A DNA stretch of 64,000 nucleotides from positions 66,611-130,610 of IMG/VR virus record IMGVR_UViG_3300026522_000022; one strand, given 5' to 3'. Positions 3,242 through 48,826 of this stretch are shown here, piece after piece. This DNA comes from a virus. Lineage: Duplodnaviria; Caudoviricetes. How positions within the stretch are numbered: position 1 is the stretch's first letter; each line of letters begins with the position of its first letter. The translations under genes and the position numbers were made by a program. Under the pieces are notes generated by a model. That model was given only the letters and a program-made list of their open reading frames with translations. It made no database searches and was not told the DNA's origin.

Positions 3242-3857
3242 ATACGTTTTTGGCCAAACCTTTATGTATCCCATGAATTTTAATTCAATAATATATCATA
3301 GATACTATTTTAGATGAATCTTTTTCATTATGAAAAATAAGAAAATCCTTAAAATAATCGTTTAAATATTTTTCCATTTTCTTAAAATCTTTATGGTCAG
3401 CAATAATACGTCTAATAAATTCTTTTTTAAGTTTATTTTCACGTTTTATTGACCTATTTAATCTAGTAAAAACATTTGTATCTATATATATAGGAATAAT
3501 AGTATAAAAACTTTGCAGTTCATTTAATTGTTTTAAACTTTTAGGATTAAAAATTCCAATATTTATCATAGTATCGACTATTTGAAATTTATTTGTTCCA
3601 TAATATCAATTATTAAATTTAGTATATTCTAAATACCGTCCAAATATAATATTATGCCCGAATACTTTATTAGAAACAAAATGATAATCTATATCTTGAT
3701 ACTCATCTTTTCTTCGCGGTCTAGTTGTATCGTGTAACAAAAGTTTTGAAGGAATATTATTTTTCTTTAAAAGTTTATGCAATTCTATTGCTAGAGTATT
3801 TTTTCCAGATGCAGATTTTCCTAAAAATGCTATAATTATAGGTTTAATTTTCTTCAT
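3240..3857 (-). CDS. Guanylate kinase-like protein (two TGA=Trp)
   Basis: GKSASGK P-loop, TTRPRR..E..DYHFVS, FNN-W(TGA)-YYGT. Joins ORFs 3606-3857 and 3285-3569. Confidence 0.85.
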
Positions 3858-6800
3858 CTTTTTCTCCCCAACGTTTATTAGTAAACTCTAATGTACCATC
3901 CTCGTTAATCTGAGTAATCTTATAAAGTTGGTGTGAATTTGTCTTTTTATAAGCTTTCGTAAAGAACATATTTCCACGACGAAAACCATTCACCATTACT
4001 TTTGTACCACGAGTAAACCAACCATTTTCCTTTACTTTTTTTGTTCCATCAATCTGAACTTCACTAATCCTTCTATTATACTTTGCATAATAATCACGAC
4101 TAAATTTAACTGTTACAACTCCACTGTTCGGAGTCAAAATACTAATTGATGATTTATTATCATCTTTCGCAATTACAGTCCCAACAATTCTTAATGTTTT
4201 AAAAATTGGAATCCGCACATTGTTTCTCTTAAAGGTATAATCAACAACTGGATCTTCTGGCAAATACTCATATTCATGAATATTATACTTCTCACAATCA
4301 ATATTCTTCAAAACATGTGGATGATAATAAAATCCTAAACTATCCATTTCCCAATCAGACAATGTACCTTCCGCATACTTATCCCATACCTCTTGGAACA
4401 AAGTATTATTCAATTTATTAAGAATATCTTCTTGATGCTGCTTAAAATATGTGCGGGCCGCATCCATTCCCTTATCATAAAGTTTCTTCCAAACTTTCTG
4501 ACTAATTACCAATTCACCATCAATATTTGGTTCAAGTAAATCTACATCAAAAAATTCTTCATAAAAGTCATAATAATTATCTTTTACAATAAAATCATCA
4601 CCACTTTTACAATTTGCTTTTAGTGCTTTATTAAACACAAACAATCTTTTTTGAAACTCAAGATGTTCTGGAATCAAATTTCTTTCCATTAATCCATTAA
4701 AATTTTGAAGTGTAATTCTCTTTTTTGGTTCGCAAACACTCCAAATATATTCTTTCATAATTTCTTCTCTTTTACCAAATGAATCAAATGCTCCACTCTT
4801 AATCAAAGAAATCATAACAGTTTTATTACACTTAACTTTCTGTTGAAAGTCTGTTAAACTTGCGTATGGTCTATTCGCAATAATTTGCTGAATAATTTCT
4901 CCACCAACGCCATTTAATGCCTTCATGCCGTATAGAATCGTGTCTGTTACAACATCCGGTTCAAACATATAACCAGAACGATTAATATCAATCAATGATA
5001 CATCAATGCCGCGATTAATAATATTACCTACTGCTTTTGCAATCTTACCATAGTTTGTACTTGCTTCTTCCTCCAAACCACTGTCAACTCGAAGACAAGC
5101 TGTATTCCAATAGACAGGATTGAAATAAGTTGCGAGATAAATCGTTTGCAAACCAACAAAACTATATGCTAAACTATGAATTAAACTAAAACTATCATTC
5201 ACCCTCAAGTTTCCAAGAGGAATAGACTATCTCTTACCCGCTTTCGCGGGAACACCCATTTCCAATTACGTATCAATAGTAATTGTACTCCCAGTCTCAC
5301 CCAGGATAGTCGTTACAGGTTTCTTAGTGGATATTTTATATTGTTATCTTTATGTGTTTCGCCCTTATTGATACGTCGGACTGTTTCAATAGAGCAATTA
5401 TATTTTTGACTTATTTCTGTTATTGATAAATTGTTTTGTAACAATTCTTCTTTTATGTAGTCTGCTTTATTTTTCTTTCTTATTGGATAAGTAGGATACA
5501 ATCCTTTTCTTAATTTTCCACTATTTATTTTTTTAACAGTAGAATATCCAATATTTAATTGTCTTGCTATGTCAGCTAAAGATAAATAAGATTCAGTTAA
5601 TAATTCAATTAATTCGTCATAATCAGAATCTTTTTTATAATACTGAAAAAGAGGATAATCAATATCTTCATCGTGATAATAAATTCCATGATTAACAGAT
5701 GATATAAAACTTGCACTTATATTATATTTATTTTGTAACTCATAATATTCAATACCTTGTTTTATATCTTCTTTTAATTGTTGAATTTGTTCATTAGATA
5801 ATTTACCTTCATACTTGCGAGATCCACCCAAGTCCATGTTATATCCTTGTCCAAATCCGCAATATGATTTTTTATTATCAATTCAATATTGTTCTCGACT
5901 ATTTATATAATTTTGATCATTACTAGTTCCTTGCTCCAATAAATATATATTAAAATTATTTTCTCCATATTGTCTAATTTTTTTATGAATAAGATCATTA
6001 TAAGAACTAGCATTTTTATTAAAAGCACAAGAACGATGTTCATTAATTCGACGGTTATAATTATTAGTTTGTCCGACATAATTATGACCATTAATTTTAT
6101 TTTCATAACAATATATATAATACATTTCCACCAAGCCTTCCCACGGGATTGCCATCACAAATGGGGTATATTTTATACCCTCATTATATATTAGGTTTCC
6201 CCGTTAGCCAATTATAAAAATTGACCCCGCCGATAAACGGAAAAGGTGTTTAGGGGCAAGTTTTTTGTTTACCCCATCTGCGGCTTAATTGCTGTTTCCC
6301 AAATATACGCACCAAGATTTTCTGAAGTTGCTCTATCCATTACTCTTTGATGAAGTTCTTCAATACGATTCATTTGTTTCTTTGCACAAATTTTTCTCGC
6401 ATCGTTCGCTTCTTTCAATGTAAACCCGCAAATATCTTTGTCCATCAAAATCATCATCATATCTTCTTGCTGTGCGGGCGTTGCATAAGTTGACAGATAA
6501 TACTTTTCCAATACCGCAATATCATGTTGAGTAATATGCCATCTTTTAAGCTCATCATACCAAAGATTCATATTATCCATCATTCGCTTATATCGTTCAG
6601 TCGGCGTCTCTCCACCTTTTTCTGTTGCCATCAGCCGCATACAACTATTACTGTTTGCCATTTCCTTTGGTGTGCGCGGCTGCAATGTTTTAACTGTCTG
6701 ACTTCCAACTTGTGAATCAAACTGGAATAACTTCAAAACATTTCCAGATGCTAATGTATCCCACATTTTATCATCTTGAATCGGCAAAACATCTGGATGA

Positions 6801-8741
6801 ATGTACTTATTATAAACTTCTCGCAAAGTTAATTCTGGTTCAATTTCTTCATGCTCTTGGAGCATTTGAATACACTGAACAATAACATCCTGAATTTCTG
6901 TTACAAGAAAATCATACTTTACATCACCTACATATTCCGCGTCATGAAGTGAATATTGAGTTACAATTGCTCCACTCGTTGCTTTCATAAAACATGCTGT
7001 CTTATATGGGTCATTATCATAAAAATTAACGCCTGACGCATGAATACCACGATGGTTAATAAGACCCTCAATGTTTTCAATAATATTCAAAAGTCCTGGA
7101 TACTTGTTTACTTCATTAATAAAATTCTTTACTGGTTTGCGGCCAGTCTCTTCGTTTCCATATACCAGATCATGAATCGGCCAAACAAATCCTCGCTCAG
7201 ATGGCGCAAGACTTGTCATATACTGCGCAATATCGTTGTCAATTCCATTTGGAAAACTTTCACTACGATAACCACGACATGCTGTTGCAATTGCAGAACG
7301 AGTTGACTCTGTTCCATATGTACAAACTTGAACACATCCAAGTTGTCCGCGCTCTTCACGAATCTTACTAAAAATCTTTTCTCTCTTGGATGGACAAATA
7401 TCAATATCAATGTCGGGGAGTTCTACACGATCTTTATTCAGAAAACGCCAATATGGAAGTTCATACTTAATCGGGTCAAGCTGTGTAATACCGAGAAGAT
7501 AATGATTTAATCCTGCACAAGCTGAACCACGACCCGCGCCTACTGTGCTGCCGCACTCCCAAAAAAGATTAATATAATGCTGAAGAAAGATTGGATAACT
7601 AAACATACAAGTTTCCAACTTATCTCCAATTGTTTTTTGAATATCTGCTTCCTCTTCAAGACGCTGAAGATAAACATCATTATATAAACCAAGTTCTTTA
7701 AGTTTATCTACACAATAATTAACCCAATATCTTTCTTGAATTTCGTCACTTTGATAAAGATAATCAAGAGTTTTATATCCAAGAGAAGATGAAATCTTAG
7801 GATAATTATGAACCTCTACTTGCGGCACCTGCTGTTTGTGTGCCAAATTAAAATTTTCAATCTTATCATAAATCTCTATTGTATTCTTTTCAAGTTCATA
7901 ATAATCAAGGCCAGTATCTTTAAGATTTTCAATTACTTCTTCAGTTGATTGAAGATATGCATACTCATAAAATGCATCGACTTCTCGCTCACCATTCTTT
8001 GAATTAAGATATGCTTTATGAACTTCTCTATCTGCTTTTGAAAGATAATGCGCGTCAGTTGTTACAATAATCTTAACACCAAAATATTGCGCGAGAGCTT
8101 TCATGCGGCTGTTGACAACCATCTGCTCTCTACTTCTTGCTGGCTGAACTTCAAAATAATAATCATCACCGAACACATACTTGCACCACTCAACAAAGTC
8201 AATAATTTGATTATAATACTTTGTTTTACCCTCAATGTTTCCAAGATGTTCAGCCTTGCACATTTCAAGAATACAATAATCAAGTTCTGAACCAAGACAT
8301 GCGGAGGATGCAATTAGATTTCCTCGACCATACTTTCTCACAATACCTTCGAGGTCACTTTTAAGAGTTGGAACCCTCTCCATACCACGGTCATAATAAC
8401 TATTCATCCATGCAATAGACGAAAGTTCACGTAACATTTTATGTCCTGTTGCATTCTTTGCAATCAAGATAAAATGATAATATTTTTGCCCAGTTTCTCT
8501 CGTATCAGTAAGATAAATTTCATTACCGAGTGCTACTTTAAAATCAGGATATTCTTTCGCAATTTGATGACGATATTTATCTATAACCACATGACCGCCG
8601 AGAGACTCGTGATCCGTAACGGCGATCCCCGTAAGTCCAAGTTCAATTGCTCTATCTATAAGTTTTTCTGGGAAGTTAATTGAGTCAAAGTAAACGAATA
8701 TTGCTGTACATTGTATGACTATGCAGCTCCATCCTACCCAA
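3844..8741 (-). CDS. dnaE: DNA polymerase III alpha subunit; needs a +1 frameshift at 8690-8684 and splicing of intron 5196-6270
   Basis: PHP motif HSHTMYS..LL/DSIN..GIAVTDHE, GRGSA, PDIDID, HASG, MG/YSFSLIHS. Segment lengths are in frame after one skipped base. Confidence 0.9.
5196..6270 (-). mobile_element. Group I intron in dnaE
   Basis: P1 GGGGU/GCCCC, terminal G; the junction restores MGYSFS. Confidence 0.9.
5313..6125 (-). CDS. GIY-YIG homing endonuclease in the dnaE intron (TGA=Trp at 5885-5883)
   Basis: YIYCYENKING..YVGQT..R..EH; REQY-W(TGA)-I..GYN; C-terminal HTH repeats. Confidence 0.85.
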
Positions 8742-8846
8742 TATTCTCCCTCCTTTCAAACTATTCTTTCTCAATTTGTATATTTATTATATCATAAAAA
8801 AACAGAGCTGTCAAACGACAGCTCTTATTACCTTATAAAAATTAGA

Positions 8847-9092
8847 TTACTTAAAGGCCGCACAAATTTCTTGCAACTGTTTTTGGTTTTGAATCACTTC
8901 ATTGATGACTGTATTTGGTACAGTAAACTCTACATATATTTTATGTTTTTCTGTATCTGCGCGAAGATTATCTGGAAAATAAAACATTACTTCATTTGAC
9001 TCTTCATCAACGGGGCCTCGAAGTAAAAATGTAGAAAATTGGTGCGCACGCATAAAATTTAAAAATGGTTGATAAGCATCATCAAGTTCCAT
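8847..9092 (-). CDS. Hypothetical protein
   Basis: Clean ORF with an upstream SD, co-oriented with neighbours. Confidence 0.6.
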   Translation of the reverse strand: MELDDAYQPFLNFMRAHQFSTFLLRGPVDEESNEVMFYFPDNLRADTEKHKIYVEFTVPNTVINEVIQNQKQLQEICAAFK

Positions 9093-40487: not shown

Positions 40488-40561
40488 GCCGCCTTAGCTC
40501 AACAGTAGAGCAGTTGGCTCTTAACCTCCAGACGTAGGGGCAGCACCTACAGGCGGTACCA
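40488..40561 (+). tRNA. tRNA-Lys(CTT), atypical
   Basis: GCCGCCT/AGGCGGT acceptor, CTCTTAA loop, CCA. The anticodon stem is mismatched and the T loop reads GGCAGCA. Confidence 0.65.
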
Positions 40562-42493: not shown

Positions 42494-42579
42494 GCCAGTG
42501 TCGCATAGTGGTCGATTGCACTCGCCTTGTAAGCGAGACTCAAAAGAGCACGTCAGTTCGAATCTGACCACTGGCTCCA
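42494..42579 (+). tRNA. tRNA-Thr(TGT) with a long variable arm
   Basis: ctcgc-CTTGTAA-gcgag; extra arm ctc-aaaa-gag; CCA. Confidence 0.8.
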
Positions 42580-42730: not shown

Positions 42731-42822
42731 GCCTCGGTAGTTTAACGGTAGAACGGCAGCCTTATAAGCTGTAAGCGCCAGATTAGCGCGAAATCTTGGT
42801 TCGAATCCAAGTCGAGGTACCA
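42731..42822 (+). tRNA. tRNA-Ile(TAT) with a long variable arm
   Basis: gcagc-CTTATAA-gctgt; extra arm gcgc/gcgc; CCA. Confidence 0.82.
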
Positions 42823-45232: not shown

Positions 45233-46386
45233 GAGAGTATCTAATAAGAACCTAGTTCGACAGATACTTTCAAAAAGGGAATTTCGATTCCTGATACGAG
45301 ATTCCGCACATCTCGGAGCCAAAATGTGCGGCGGAAACGAAACCGTGAGAGCTTCGCCTAAGCCGTGATGGAGAAAGCGGTCGGTCTGCCACACGCCTGT
45401 CGCGTGTGGACGGTCATTCAAGAGACGGGTATCTTGAACGTATTGGCAAACACGTGATATTTGCTGGTTTTAACCATCTGTTACCAATAACAGAAGGCGC
45501 GGGCAAGCGCGAGCAACTTGTCTCGGGAATTGACTCTAGCCCGAATCCAAGTGGTGGCTCCGCAAAGGGTTATCGTCCTAAGTATGACATTAAACTGCTT
45601 CGAGATTTTTCTCGCATACGAGACTCGTTAAATAAGTGTATGCAAACCTTGCGTAGCGCGTCAAGTAAAGCTTCGGGCAACGTGTCATGGTCATAAACAC
45701 GTAAAAATGACGACCCCGGGCGCTTATAGGTTTGGCACCGGTTCAACGTGAAACCTAATATTGCTCTTTGATAAAGTCATATCAAAAACTATGTGAACCA
45801 TGTGTATGCGTAATACCATACGGTCATGGGTATTGAGTCAACAGAGTCGAAATCTATGGGATACTTTAGATGTAAACTTTGTGGTGGTAGGTAACCAAGC
45901 CACAGGAGCGGAGAAAGCCGAAAGGTGCCGCAACTAAAAACTCAATAGCGCCAATTAATTTTGCAGTCAAAAGGTAGTGTCTTGTCGCTTCCGCAATAGA
46001 CGCTCTCTGTGAGAGAAGAACCTAGAACACTCACTAACGGGTGGTGCCGAGTGAGAACTAAGCTAGGAATACCAATTAAGGAAGTTTCCAGTGCGGCTGT
46101 GGTAACACAGCTTATAAGACGAGTTCAACGTGCGAGTAGCCCAATCTGGAAAGATATATTCGATTATAGCCATTTAGAAATGGAAATCTAAATCATTATA
46201 GTCTGAATGGTGGGTGAAAGCTGTCGGGTAAGCAATCCCGCGATGGAACTGGCAATTATGCTGGGGCAAGAAGTTATAGGGTCGCTCCTTATAGCTCAGA
46301 CTTGTCTCCCATGTGACTGAATATTGATGCGAAGCTAAGAGGTAAGGCGAAGGTCTCTTATAGTTTTTGATATGGCTTTATCAAAG
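45233..46386 (+). ncRNA. Very large structured ncRNA region (one GOLLD-like RNA or two RNAs)
   Basis: About 1.15 kb, GC-richer, no credible ORF, behind tandem promoters. A 27-bp helix joins 45766-45792 to 46360-46386. Confidence 0.6.
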
Positions 46387-48349: not shown

Positions 48350-48553
48350 ATGTCTTTGTGGAATGAGCTAAAAGAATATGTAGTAGCTGATGAAATAATT
48401 AATGGTGAACTTAGTCATTATTATACAATTCGAGTCAAGACAGATGTTTCTCCTAATAGATTTAAAATTGTTGCATCTTTTAATAGTTATGAAGAAGCTC
48501 ATAATTTTGTTAAAGGACTGCGACTTTTAAAGCAATACAGGAGTGTGGTGTAA
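48350..48553 (+). CDS. Hypothetical protein; its 3' end overlaps the tRNA-Trp 5' end
   Basis: SD and ATG; the stop codon lies in the tRNA D arm. Confidence 0.5.
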   Translation: MSLWNELKEYVVADEIINGELSHYYTIRVKTDVSPNRFKIVASFNSYEEAHNFVKGLRLLKQYRSVV

Positions 48554-48826
48554 CGGTAGCACAGCGGTCTTTAAATATGGAGCTTTTAATTGGAAACAAT
48601 TAAAGTGCAGCGGATGATATCGGTGAACCCTGTAAAATGGCAACACCGAGGGAAGATAAGTTCACCCGTAGAGACTAGATAATCCGCCACCTAAGTCATT
48701 TGATAAGGTGAAGATATAGCCCAGACCACAAACCGCAAGGGTAGTGAAAACTATAGTGGTAAGCAAAACCGTCAACGATGGCCTCCAAACCCATCGGCGG
48801 GGGTTCGAATCCCTCCACTCCTGCCA
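48539..48826 (+). tRNA. Opal-suppressor tRNA-Trp(TCA) split by a group I intron; exons 48539-48571 and 48764-48826
   Basis: Splicing gives gcggt-CTTCAAA-accgt. Acceptor AGGAGTG/CACTCCT with G73 is Trp-type; 7/5 fold; CCA end. Confidence 0.85.
48572..48763 (+). mobile_element. Minimal group I intron (192 nt) at anticodon position 34/35
   Basis: Core homologous to the tRNA-Lys intron; P1 CUUUA/UGGAG with U34-G; terminal G. Confidence 0.88.

Follow-up and report, generated by a model that had tools for sequence, protein, structure and literature searches.

To our knowledge, prfB, the gene for release factor 2 (RF2), is the only gene in which bacteria make widespread natural use of CUU-UGA-C. 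The +1 site of yeast Ty1, CUU-AGG-C, is eukaryotic and depends on a rare tRNA-Arg. In phage T4, mobA and gene 60 reportedly form a translational-bypass cassette, a description ascribed to Bonocora in 2011. The prfB motif consists of an AGGGGG block resembling a Shine-Dalgarno (SD) sequence 3 nt before CTTT, followed by TGA and a C, and its shifting in Bacillus subtilis amounts to 52.7% (PMC12421855). The T4 cassette holds an HNH gene and a diverged copy of the deleted target sequence, which ends at the bypass, and nuclease-less forms exist (Manning and Atkins, bioRxiv 10.1101/2022.08.31.505936). The GeneTack survey names prfB, dnaX and insertion sequence (IS) elements (PMC3711429), and full-text literature searches turned up no published +1 frameshift in a gene for the alpha subunit of DNA polymerase III (Pol III alpha). 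The locus considered here is such a gene, dnaE of an uncultured phage of the Caudoviricetes, which lies on the minus strand of a 64,000-nt stretch (the window), positions 66,611 to 130,610 of the 130.6-kb IMG/VR record IMGVR_UViG_3300026522_000022. Its reading frame is broken after 18 codons at CTT-TGA-C. The gene is probably decoded by a programmed +1 frameshift, the extra T most likely being the 3′ edge of an HNH endonuclease cassette whose nuclease would have been lost in this genome.

The start of dnaE and its break are made up of the following features.

8786 to 8814, minus strand: sigma-70 type promoter, TTGACA, 17 nt and TATAAT, with 12 of 12 hexamer matches and an extended -10 TG
8756 to 8748, minus strand: SD sequence preceding the TTG start of dnaE
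8685 to 8741, minus strand: frame-0 open reading frame (ORF), 18 sense codons from TTG 8741-8739, including the PHP HxH motif and S-N-I-R-L-L, ending in TGA
8684 to 8690, minus strand: putative shift heptamer CTT-TGA-C, with P-site CUU 8690-8688, A-site UGA 8687-8685 and 3′ C 8684
6269 to 8686, minus strand: +1-frame ORF, the N-terminal part of DnaE, 805 codons plus stop, with the rest of PHP, the NTPase domain and the finger domain

The frame-0 peptide from TTG 8741 is M-G-R-M-E-L-H-S-H-T-M-Y-S-N-I-R-L-L. If the TGA were read through in frame 0, L-N would follow and then TAA at 8678-8676. The +1 frame begins with GAC at 8686-8684, reads D-S-I-N-F-P-E-K-L and further on T-D-H-E, and stays open to 6269; its Pfam matches are PF02811, PF07733 and PF17657 (PHP, Pol III alpha NTPase and finger). 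An earlier note on this DNA, made from its letters, had stated that dnaE needs a +1 shift at CUU-UGA-C after codon 18 and that readthrough in frame 0 would add two more codons before a TAA; the observation and its coordinates were correct, and the TAA is the one given above. The dnaE promoter overlaps the terminator hairpin of the upstream gene (8825-8804).

The +1 part alone matches the PHP profile at positions 17-88 (43.4 bits). When CTTT is taken as one Leu, the match covers positions 1-88 (56.8 bits), with positions 1-16 encoded in frame 0 and the remainder in the +1 frame. The spacing of S-N-I-R-L-L-D-S is identical in in-frame relatives, including YorL of Bacillus phage SPbeta. The +1 ORF aligns to residues 23-851 of an intact relative of 1318 amino acids with 57% identity; the PHP, Pol III alpha NTPase, finger and HhH domains occur in order, and the gene is collinear with that relative. 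The 130.6-kb record has one Pol III alpha gene, the sole DNA polymerase family found, and no family A or family B polymerase. Because dnaE is the sole polymerase of the record, full-length DnaE has to be produced.

Could it be made as a second product, by re-initiation downstream of an 18-codon leader peptide? Where a stop codon lies close to a strong SD, terminating ribosomes might in principle re-initiate, but no ATG, GTG or TTG stands in the +1 frame ahead of GTG 8590, and a DnaE begun at that codon would lack the HxH motif together with some 45 positions of the PHP profile. The leader, moreover, would be the conserved catalytic motif itself, and re-initiation is very unlikely. One public pipeline nevertheless calls dnaE as a 773-residue product beginning at GTG 8590; gene callers cut such polymerases short at the shift.

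The record is a metagenome assembly and the extra base sits in a run of three T, as might be expected if the T were an assembly or sequencing error absent from the phage, or if dnaE were a dead gene. An independent ENA assembly (ERZ27252042, a contig of 25,255 bp) is 100% identical over 8560-8860 (301 nt), heptamer included. IMG/VR was scanned with a degenerate pattern, HxH...S-N-I-R-L-L-TGA and then D-[SC]-I-N...T-D-H-E in the +1 frame, which returned 32 dnaE genes with the shifted layout and with highly diverse downstream sequences. This first scan required N-I-R-L-L; protein-based scans without an assumed site, run to counter that bias, added S-N-L-R-L-L carriers and a CGA variant. After removal of duplicates the non-redundant set comprised 120 dnaE 5′ ends.

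In frame: 85 of 120
Shifted layout, CTT-TGA-C: 30 of 120
Shifted layout, CTT-TGA-T: 4 of 120
Shifted layout, CTT-CGA-T: 1 of 120

At least 23 IMG datasets and two GenBank contigs contributed shifted alleles, and the break falls at the same codon in all 35. The frame-0 residues are kept in relatives despite synonymous codon change, with Ser written as AGC, AGT, TCA, TCT or TCG. In a quick tree of dnaE, entire clades more than 30% apart in protein are all shifted, and shifted alleles appear in at least five places. A pattern scan of bacterial genomes gave only two dnaE matches, both on phage-sized contigs binned into metagenome-assembled genomes, and a blastn search of cultured phages with the 81-nt site gave no convincing match. 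An error or a pseudogene is close to refuted by the identical second assembly, by the one codon at which 35 distinct alleles from many datasets are broken, by an intact +1 frame of 805 codons that is 57% identical to the intact relative, and by the lack of any second DNA polymerase in the record; the break is genuine and conserved. The possible 1-nt assembly error of which the earlier note had warned thus falls away, and the check it had proposed, conservation of CTTTGAC in related dnaE genes, shows that close and distant relatives keep the extra T.

The slippery CTTT is present in all 35 non-redundant shifted alleles, preceded in 32 of them by TTA as the E-site codon. The A-site codon is TGA in 34/35 and CGA in 1/35, and TAA or TAG in 0/35. 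The Asp codon is GAC in 30/35 shifted vs 21/85 in-frame alleles (p 6e-10). In the window, the codons upstream of CTTT are AAT ATT CGT TTA. The likeness to prfB lies in the identical heptamer (slippery CUU_U, in-frame UGA and 3′ C), with a stop that is always UGA, and in its place early in the ORF, at codon 19 in phage dnaE and codon 26 in E. coli prfB. The phage site differs in having no AGGGGG stimulator 3 nt upstream; an internal SD of the prfB type is absent, with no purine-rich block in any of 21 aligned alleles. It differs also in its product, Pol III alpha and not RF2, hence without an autoregulatory loop, and in travelling with a mobile nuclease cassette. RNAalifold over the 21 aligned alleles gave 0 conserved pairs, and the local fold of the single sequence at the site is no more stable than shuffled sequence (z = 0.22). 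The earlier note's prfB heptamer core is borne out, including the 3′ C, as is its caveat that the internal SD of prfB is lacking, which is true for 21/21 aligned alleles.

With Ty1 the phage site shares a slip from CUU in the P site beside a slowly decoded A-site codon, and the CTT-CGA-T of allele L252 is the sense-codon version of this arrangement. Unlike Ty1, however, the phage alleles collected here include only L252 as a sense-codon type. In that allele the shifted site (L252:1490-1506) has a sense Arg codon in the A site.

Decoding would proceed as follows. Ribosomes would start at TTG 8741, read 18 codons and pause with peptidyl-tRNA-Leu on CUU and a poorly terminating UGA-C in the A site awaiting RF2. 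The tRNA-Leu could then re-pair one base forward on UUU, with GAC (Asp) decoded next, and the slip would join the HxH motif to the remaining PHP domain. Ribosomes that do not slip would release an 18-residue peptide. The heptamer alone would suffice, without an internal SD or conserved RNA structure, and the consensus promoter and strong SD may offset a low shift rate.

The same outcome, one Leu and then Asp, would follow from four-base decoding, in which a special tRNA takes CUUU as a single Leu codon, or from a short peptidyl-tRNA hop, and by sequence these mechanisms are inseparable from a slip. The window does carry unusual tRNA genes, and some relatives have stop-started gaps of 5-9 nt, five codons upstream, that resemble hops (TCT-TAG-G-TCT). 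The heptamer is nevertheless a classical slip site, and among 11 ordinary tRNA genes (ARAGORN, Rfam gathering search), a count that excludes an intron-split candidate at 48539-48826, there is no tRNA-Leu for CUN and no expanded anticodon of the AAAG type. Four-base decoding or a hop is improbable on this evidence.

A programmed +1 slip leaves the source of the extra T to be explained, and this appears to lie in a mobile element. A single HNH family has ORFs of 282-314 codons, or of 212 codons in one form, that run exactly to the dnaE SD. Its members abut the dnaE start in 17/34 shifted vs 2/81 in-frame alleles (Fisher p 3e-9, from rows that are not phylogenetically independent). L056, with the HNH gene, and L050, without it, are 99% identical, their homology beginning exactly at the dnaE start, and in the first 878 nt all 5 mismatches fall within -40 to +23 of the Asp codon. 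In L016 the HNH gene is a free-standing insert of 939 nt in the intergenic spacer, with the dnaE start as its 3′ boundary. Shifted L241 and in-frame L242 show 88-100% identity after the shift and 61% in the 75 nt before it. Likewise, when L279, L270 and L278 are set against in-frame L272, identity is 95-100% across most of the first 600 nt that follow the shift (80-100% in single 60-nt windows) and 57-65% in the 75 nt that precede it. From the swap boundaries in these near-identical pairs (~75 nt) it follows that a swapped module has its 3′ edge at the extra T. The short HNH form occurs in L279; L270 and L278 have the swapped 5′ end without the nuclease gene on the same backbone. Shifted forms without the nuclease gene include the window, L270, L274, L278, L062, L086 and others.

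No HNH homolog was found in the whole genome of this phage, and the ORFs upstream of dnaE in the window have no Pfam match. The nearest relative of the window, L082, has an HNH gene with TGA at four conserved Trp positions. The last 19 nt of that gene, which encode the HNH C-terminus and also hold the dnaE SD and TTG start, match window 8757-8739 letter for letter.

8739 to 8757, minus strand: 19-nt block with SD and TTG start, the same letters as the 3′ end of the L082 HNH-endonuclease cassette

This block may be a relic of the cassette. Taken together, the sequence comparisons link the site to a mobile HNH cassette and place it at the cassette edge, the window representing, as far as they go, the form without the nuclease gene. 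A tblastn search of cultured phages with the HNH protein gave only distant matches, to Vibrio and Pseudoalteromonas phages. The HNH genes follow the altered code of the phage in which they reside. In L082, Trp positions are written TGA, and in L117, TAG stands mostly where Gln belongs, so that the cassette either has adapted to each code or stays confined to it.

The cassette would comprise an HNH homing endonuclease gene and the SD, followed by a copy of its own of roughly the first 19 dnaE codons together with the extra T. It would spread between related phages, the drive of the nuclease spreading the extra T with it. Carriers are most likely protected from the nuclease by their altered 5′ end, and shifting would keep the cost of the extra T tolerable. 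In this genome the nuclease gene would have been lost, with only the shifted 5′ end left. That shifted alleles outlast the nuclease gene argues that the site is cheap or useful, through immunity to nuclease carriers or through dosage control.

The arrangement resembles that of T4 mobA and gene 60. An HNH gene of about 280 codons lies just upstream (in 17/34 shifted relatives, not in this window), the diverged target copy of the cassette ends at a recoding site beginning with a stop codon, and nuclease-less derivatives keep the recoding site, with a patchy distribution among relatives. The likeness to mobA is one of architecture. The HNH gene here stands in an intergenic spacer and the target gene is not split, and the target is dnaE, whereas in T4 it is topoisomerase. 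In dnaE the gap is one base and is crossed by a +1 slip, in contrast to the 50-nt hop of T4; the T4 bypass has take-off and landing codons, a hairpin and a nascent-peptide signal, whereas the 1-nt gap of dnaE has no conserved pairs. By analogy, the dnaE case may be regarded as a one-base, slip-resolved variant of the T4 system in another essential gene.

Several points weigh against a programmed shift inherited from the cassette. Slippage itself and its efficiency are inferred from sequence. The stimulatory SD of prfB is absent at the dnaE site, and in E. coli the bare heptamer shifts only a few percent, which seems low for a sole replicase. The shared string CGC-TTA-CTT-TGA-C could reflect common descent of the cassette and not selection for shifting. 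Because this genome is without an HNH homolog, the cassette origin for the window rests on relatives. Two in-frame alleles, L016 and L056, bear the HNH gene, so that coexistence with the nuclease does not depend on the extra T, which is one solution only. The interdependent rows of the HNH comparison and the quick nature of the tree count on the same side.

The code of this phage bears on how its UGA is read. When TGA is counted as sense, ORFs of 100 codons or more reach a coverage of 0.89 instead of 0.69; two of them, 2938 and 2365 codons long, hold 19 and 25 TGA codons, and in standard-code relatives a Trp stands opposite TGA 64 times. On this evidence the phage reads TGA as sense (Trp) in its late genes. 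The dnaE gene and the neighbouring replication genes are nearly TGA-free. One further feature is a candidate opal suppressor tRNA-Trp(UCA).

48539 to 48826, plus strand: tRNA-like gene with a group I intron in the anticodon loop; Rfam Intron_gpI at 48561-48744, 41.9 bits (below the gathering score of 50), E 3.7e-9

Its exons and anticodon were assigned by eye only. ARAGORN and the Rfam gathering search missed this split tRNA, and the intron mode of ARAGORN gave noise only. Surveys of whole contigs distributed the dnaE carriers among three codes.

Shifted carriers: standard code, G006 and G008; TAG-recoded, G002 and G005; TGA-recoded, this genome and L082
In-frame relatives: standard code, G012; TAG-recoded, G011, G013 and G015; TGA-recoded, none sampled

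A tie between the site and TGA recoding was rejected, as the site is also found in standard-code and TAG-recoded phages. Another relative, L035 (contig G019), has an in-frame TAG at dnaE codon 6, where relatives have Glu (R-F-E-V-H-S-H); the contig looks TAG-recoded, and this would be a recoded stop in an early replication gene.

These observations bear on the proposal that the site is a regulatory sensor, which ties DnaE output to RF2 and, here, to the opal suppressor tRNA. Early in infection RF2 alone would compete with the slip; late, tRNA(UCA) would read UGA as Trp, ribosomes would stop at the TAA three codons on, and the polymerase would be off. The recoded late genes (0.69 to 0.89; 64 TGA/Trp alignments), the near absence of TGA from dnaE and its replication neighbours, and the candidate intron-split tRNA(UCA) all fit such a sensor, as does the persistence of shifted alleles in many nuclease-less lineages, which suggests that the site is not costly or is useful. 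Curran and Yarus are said to have found in 1988 that suppressor tRNAs lower shifting at the RF2 site, which would also favour it. The same site in standard-code and TAG-recoded phages shows, on the other hand, that it did not arise for opal recoding, and cassette linkage accounts for its origin and spread without a regulatory role. Nor was a release factor found: 25 of the 26 virus records searched, this one included, have no release-factor (RF-1 domain) gene, the 26th record, G010, being an unrelated pattern match and not a dnaE locus. A sensor is rather unlikely on balance, though it is compatible with a cassette origin and not exclusive of it. The earlier note had proposed a switch set by the balance of RF2 and suppressor tRNA. 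As a general reason for the site this fails, three codes carrying it, while in a phage in which TGA is Trp it is possible; the note's shift core stands, but the link to an HNH homing endonuclease had been overlooked.

One may suggest, tentatively, that in this opal-recoding phage the inherited CUU-UGA-C acts as a code-state switch, and that selfish nuclease cassettes seed RF2-type sites in essential phage genes. Synthesis of the sole replicase would then be confined to the time in which UGA still acts as a slow stop. When spliced and charged tRNA-Trp(UCA) begins to read the frame-0 UGA, ribosomes would end at the UAA three codons later, and the change of genetic code itself would turn polymerase synthesis off.

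The probable +1 shift at a cassette edge would provide a second, independent gene family with the prfB heptamer but without the SD stimulator, and the 35 natural variants available for comparison are a ready test of the bare heptamer in Bacillota. T4 gene 60 gave the idea that a homing endonuclease travels in company with a translational device by which the host gene stays functional; dnaE would present this in its smallest form, a single base. Where a phage reassigns UGA, synthesis of its replicase would, through this site, hinge on the code in force.

Further downstream, dnaE is interrupted a second time.

3844 to 5208, minus strand: C-terminal part of DnaE with the HHH_6 domain, aligning to residues 853-1302 of the intact 1318-residue relative
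5313 to 6203, minus strand: GIY-YIG plus helix-turn-helix homing-endonuclease ORF, 296 codons with one in-frame TGA; phrog_7168 homing endonuclease, E 7e-34

A 1078-nt insert (window 5209-6271, minus strand), which holds the homing-endonuclease ORF, splits the gene cleanly between residues 851 and 853 of the intact relative. At 5203-5422 there is a weak signal (16.7 bits) of a group I intron. The insert is either a self-splicing intron or the gene has been left in two pieces.

Nine dnaE relatives (L010, L011, L012, L015, L023, L041, L042, L045 and L046) have stop-started inserts of 5-9 nt after the Y-S codon, ~15 nt before the Asp codon: TCT-TAG-G-TCT, TCC-TAA-CC, TCT-TAA-AAA-GCT and TCT-TAG-TCT. 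By their sequences these inserts are consistent with short ribosomal hops. The HNH family of the +1 site accompanies 0/9 of these alleles; the +1 site differs from the gaps in lying five codons downstream, in being 1 nt and in having no structure. In the same genome as the window, nrdG (G000:C1:65765-65776, minus strand, about 835-846 nt before the window start) has an in-frame TCT-TAA-CAG-TCT within its radical-SAM motif, and removal of 9 nt restores CxxxCxxC. It is a candidate for a second recoding event, a matched-codon hop.

The window holds several other RNA features, all on the plus strand. Two tRNAs, at 42494-42579 and 42731-42822, have long variable arms like those of type II with the anticodons UGU (Thr) and UAU (Ile), a combination unusual in bacteria. 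A weak extra tRNA match at 40488-40558 (Rfam only, 40.8 bits) has a poorly paired anticodon stem, an oversized loop with CUCUUAA and a non-canonical T loop. A full-length ROOL RNA lies in the tRNA region at 45774-46375 (Rfam RF03087, 347.6 bits).

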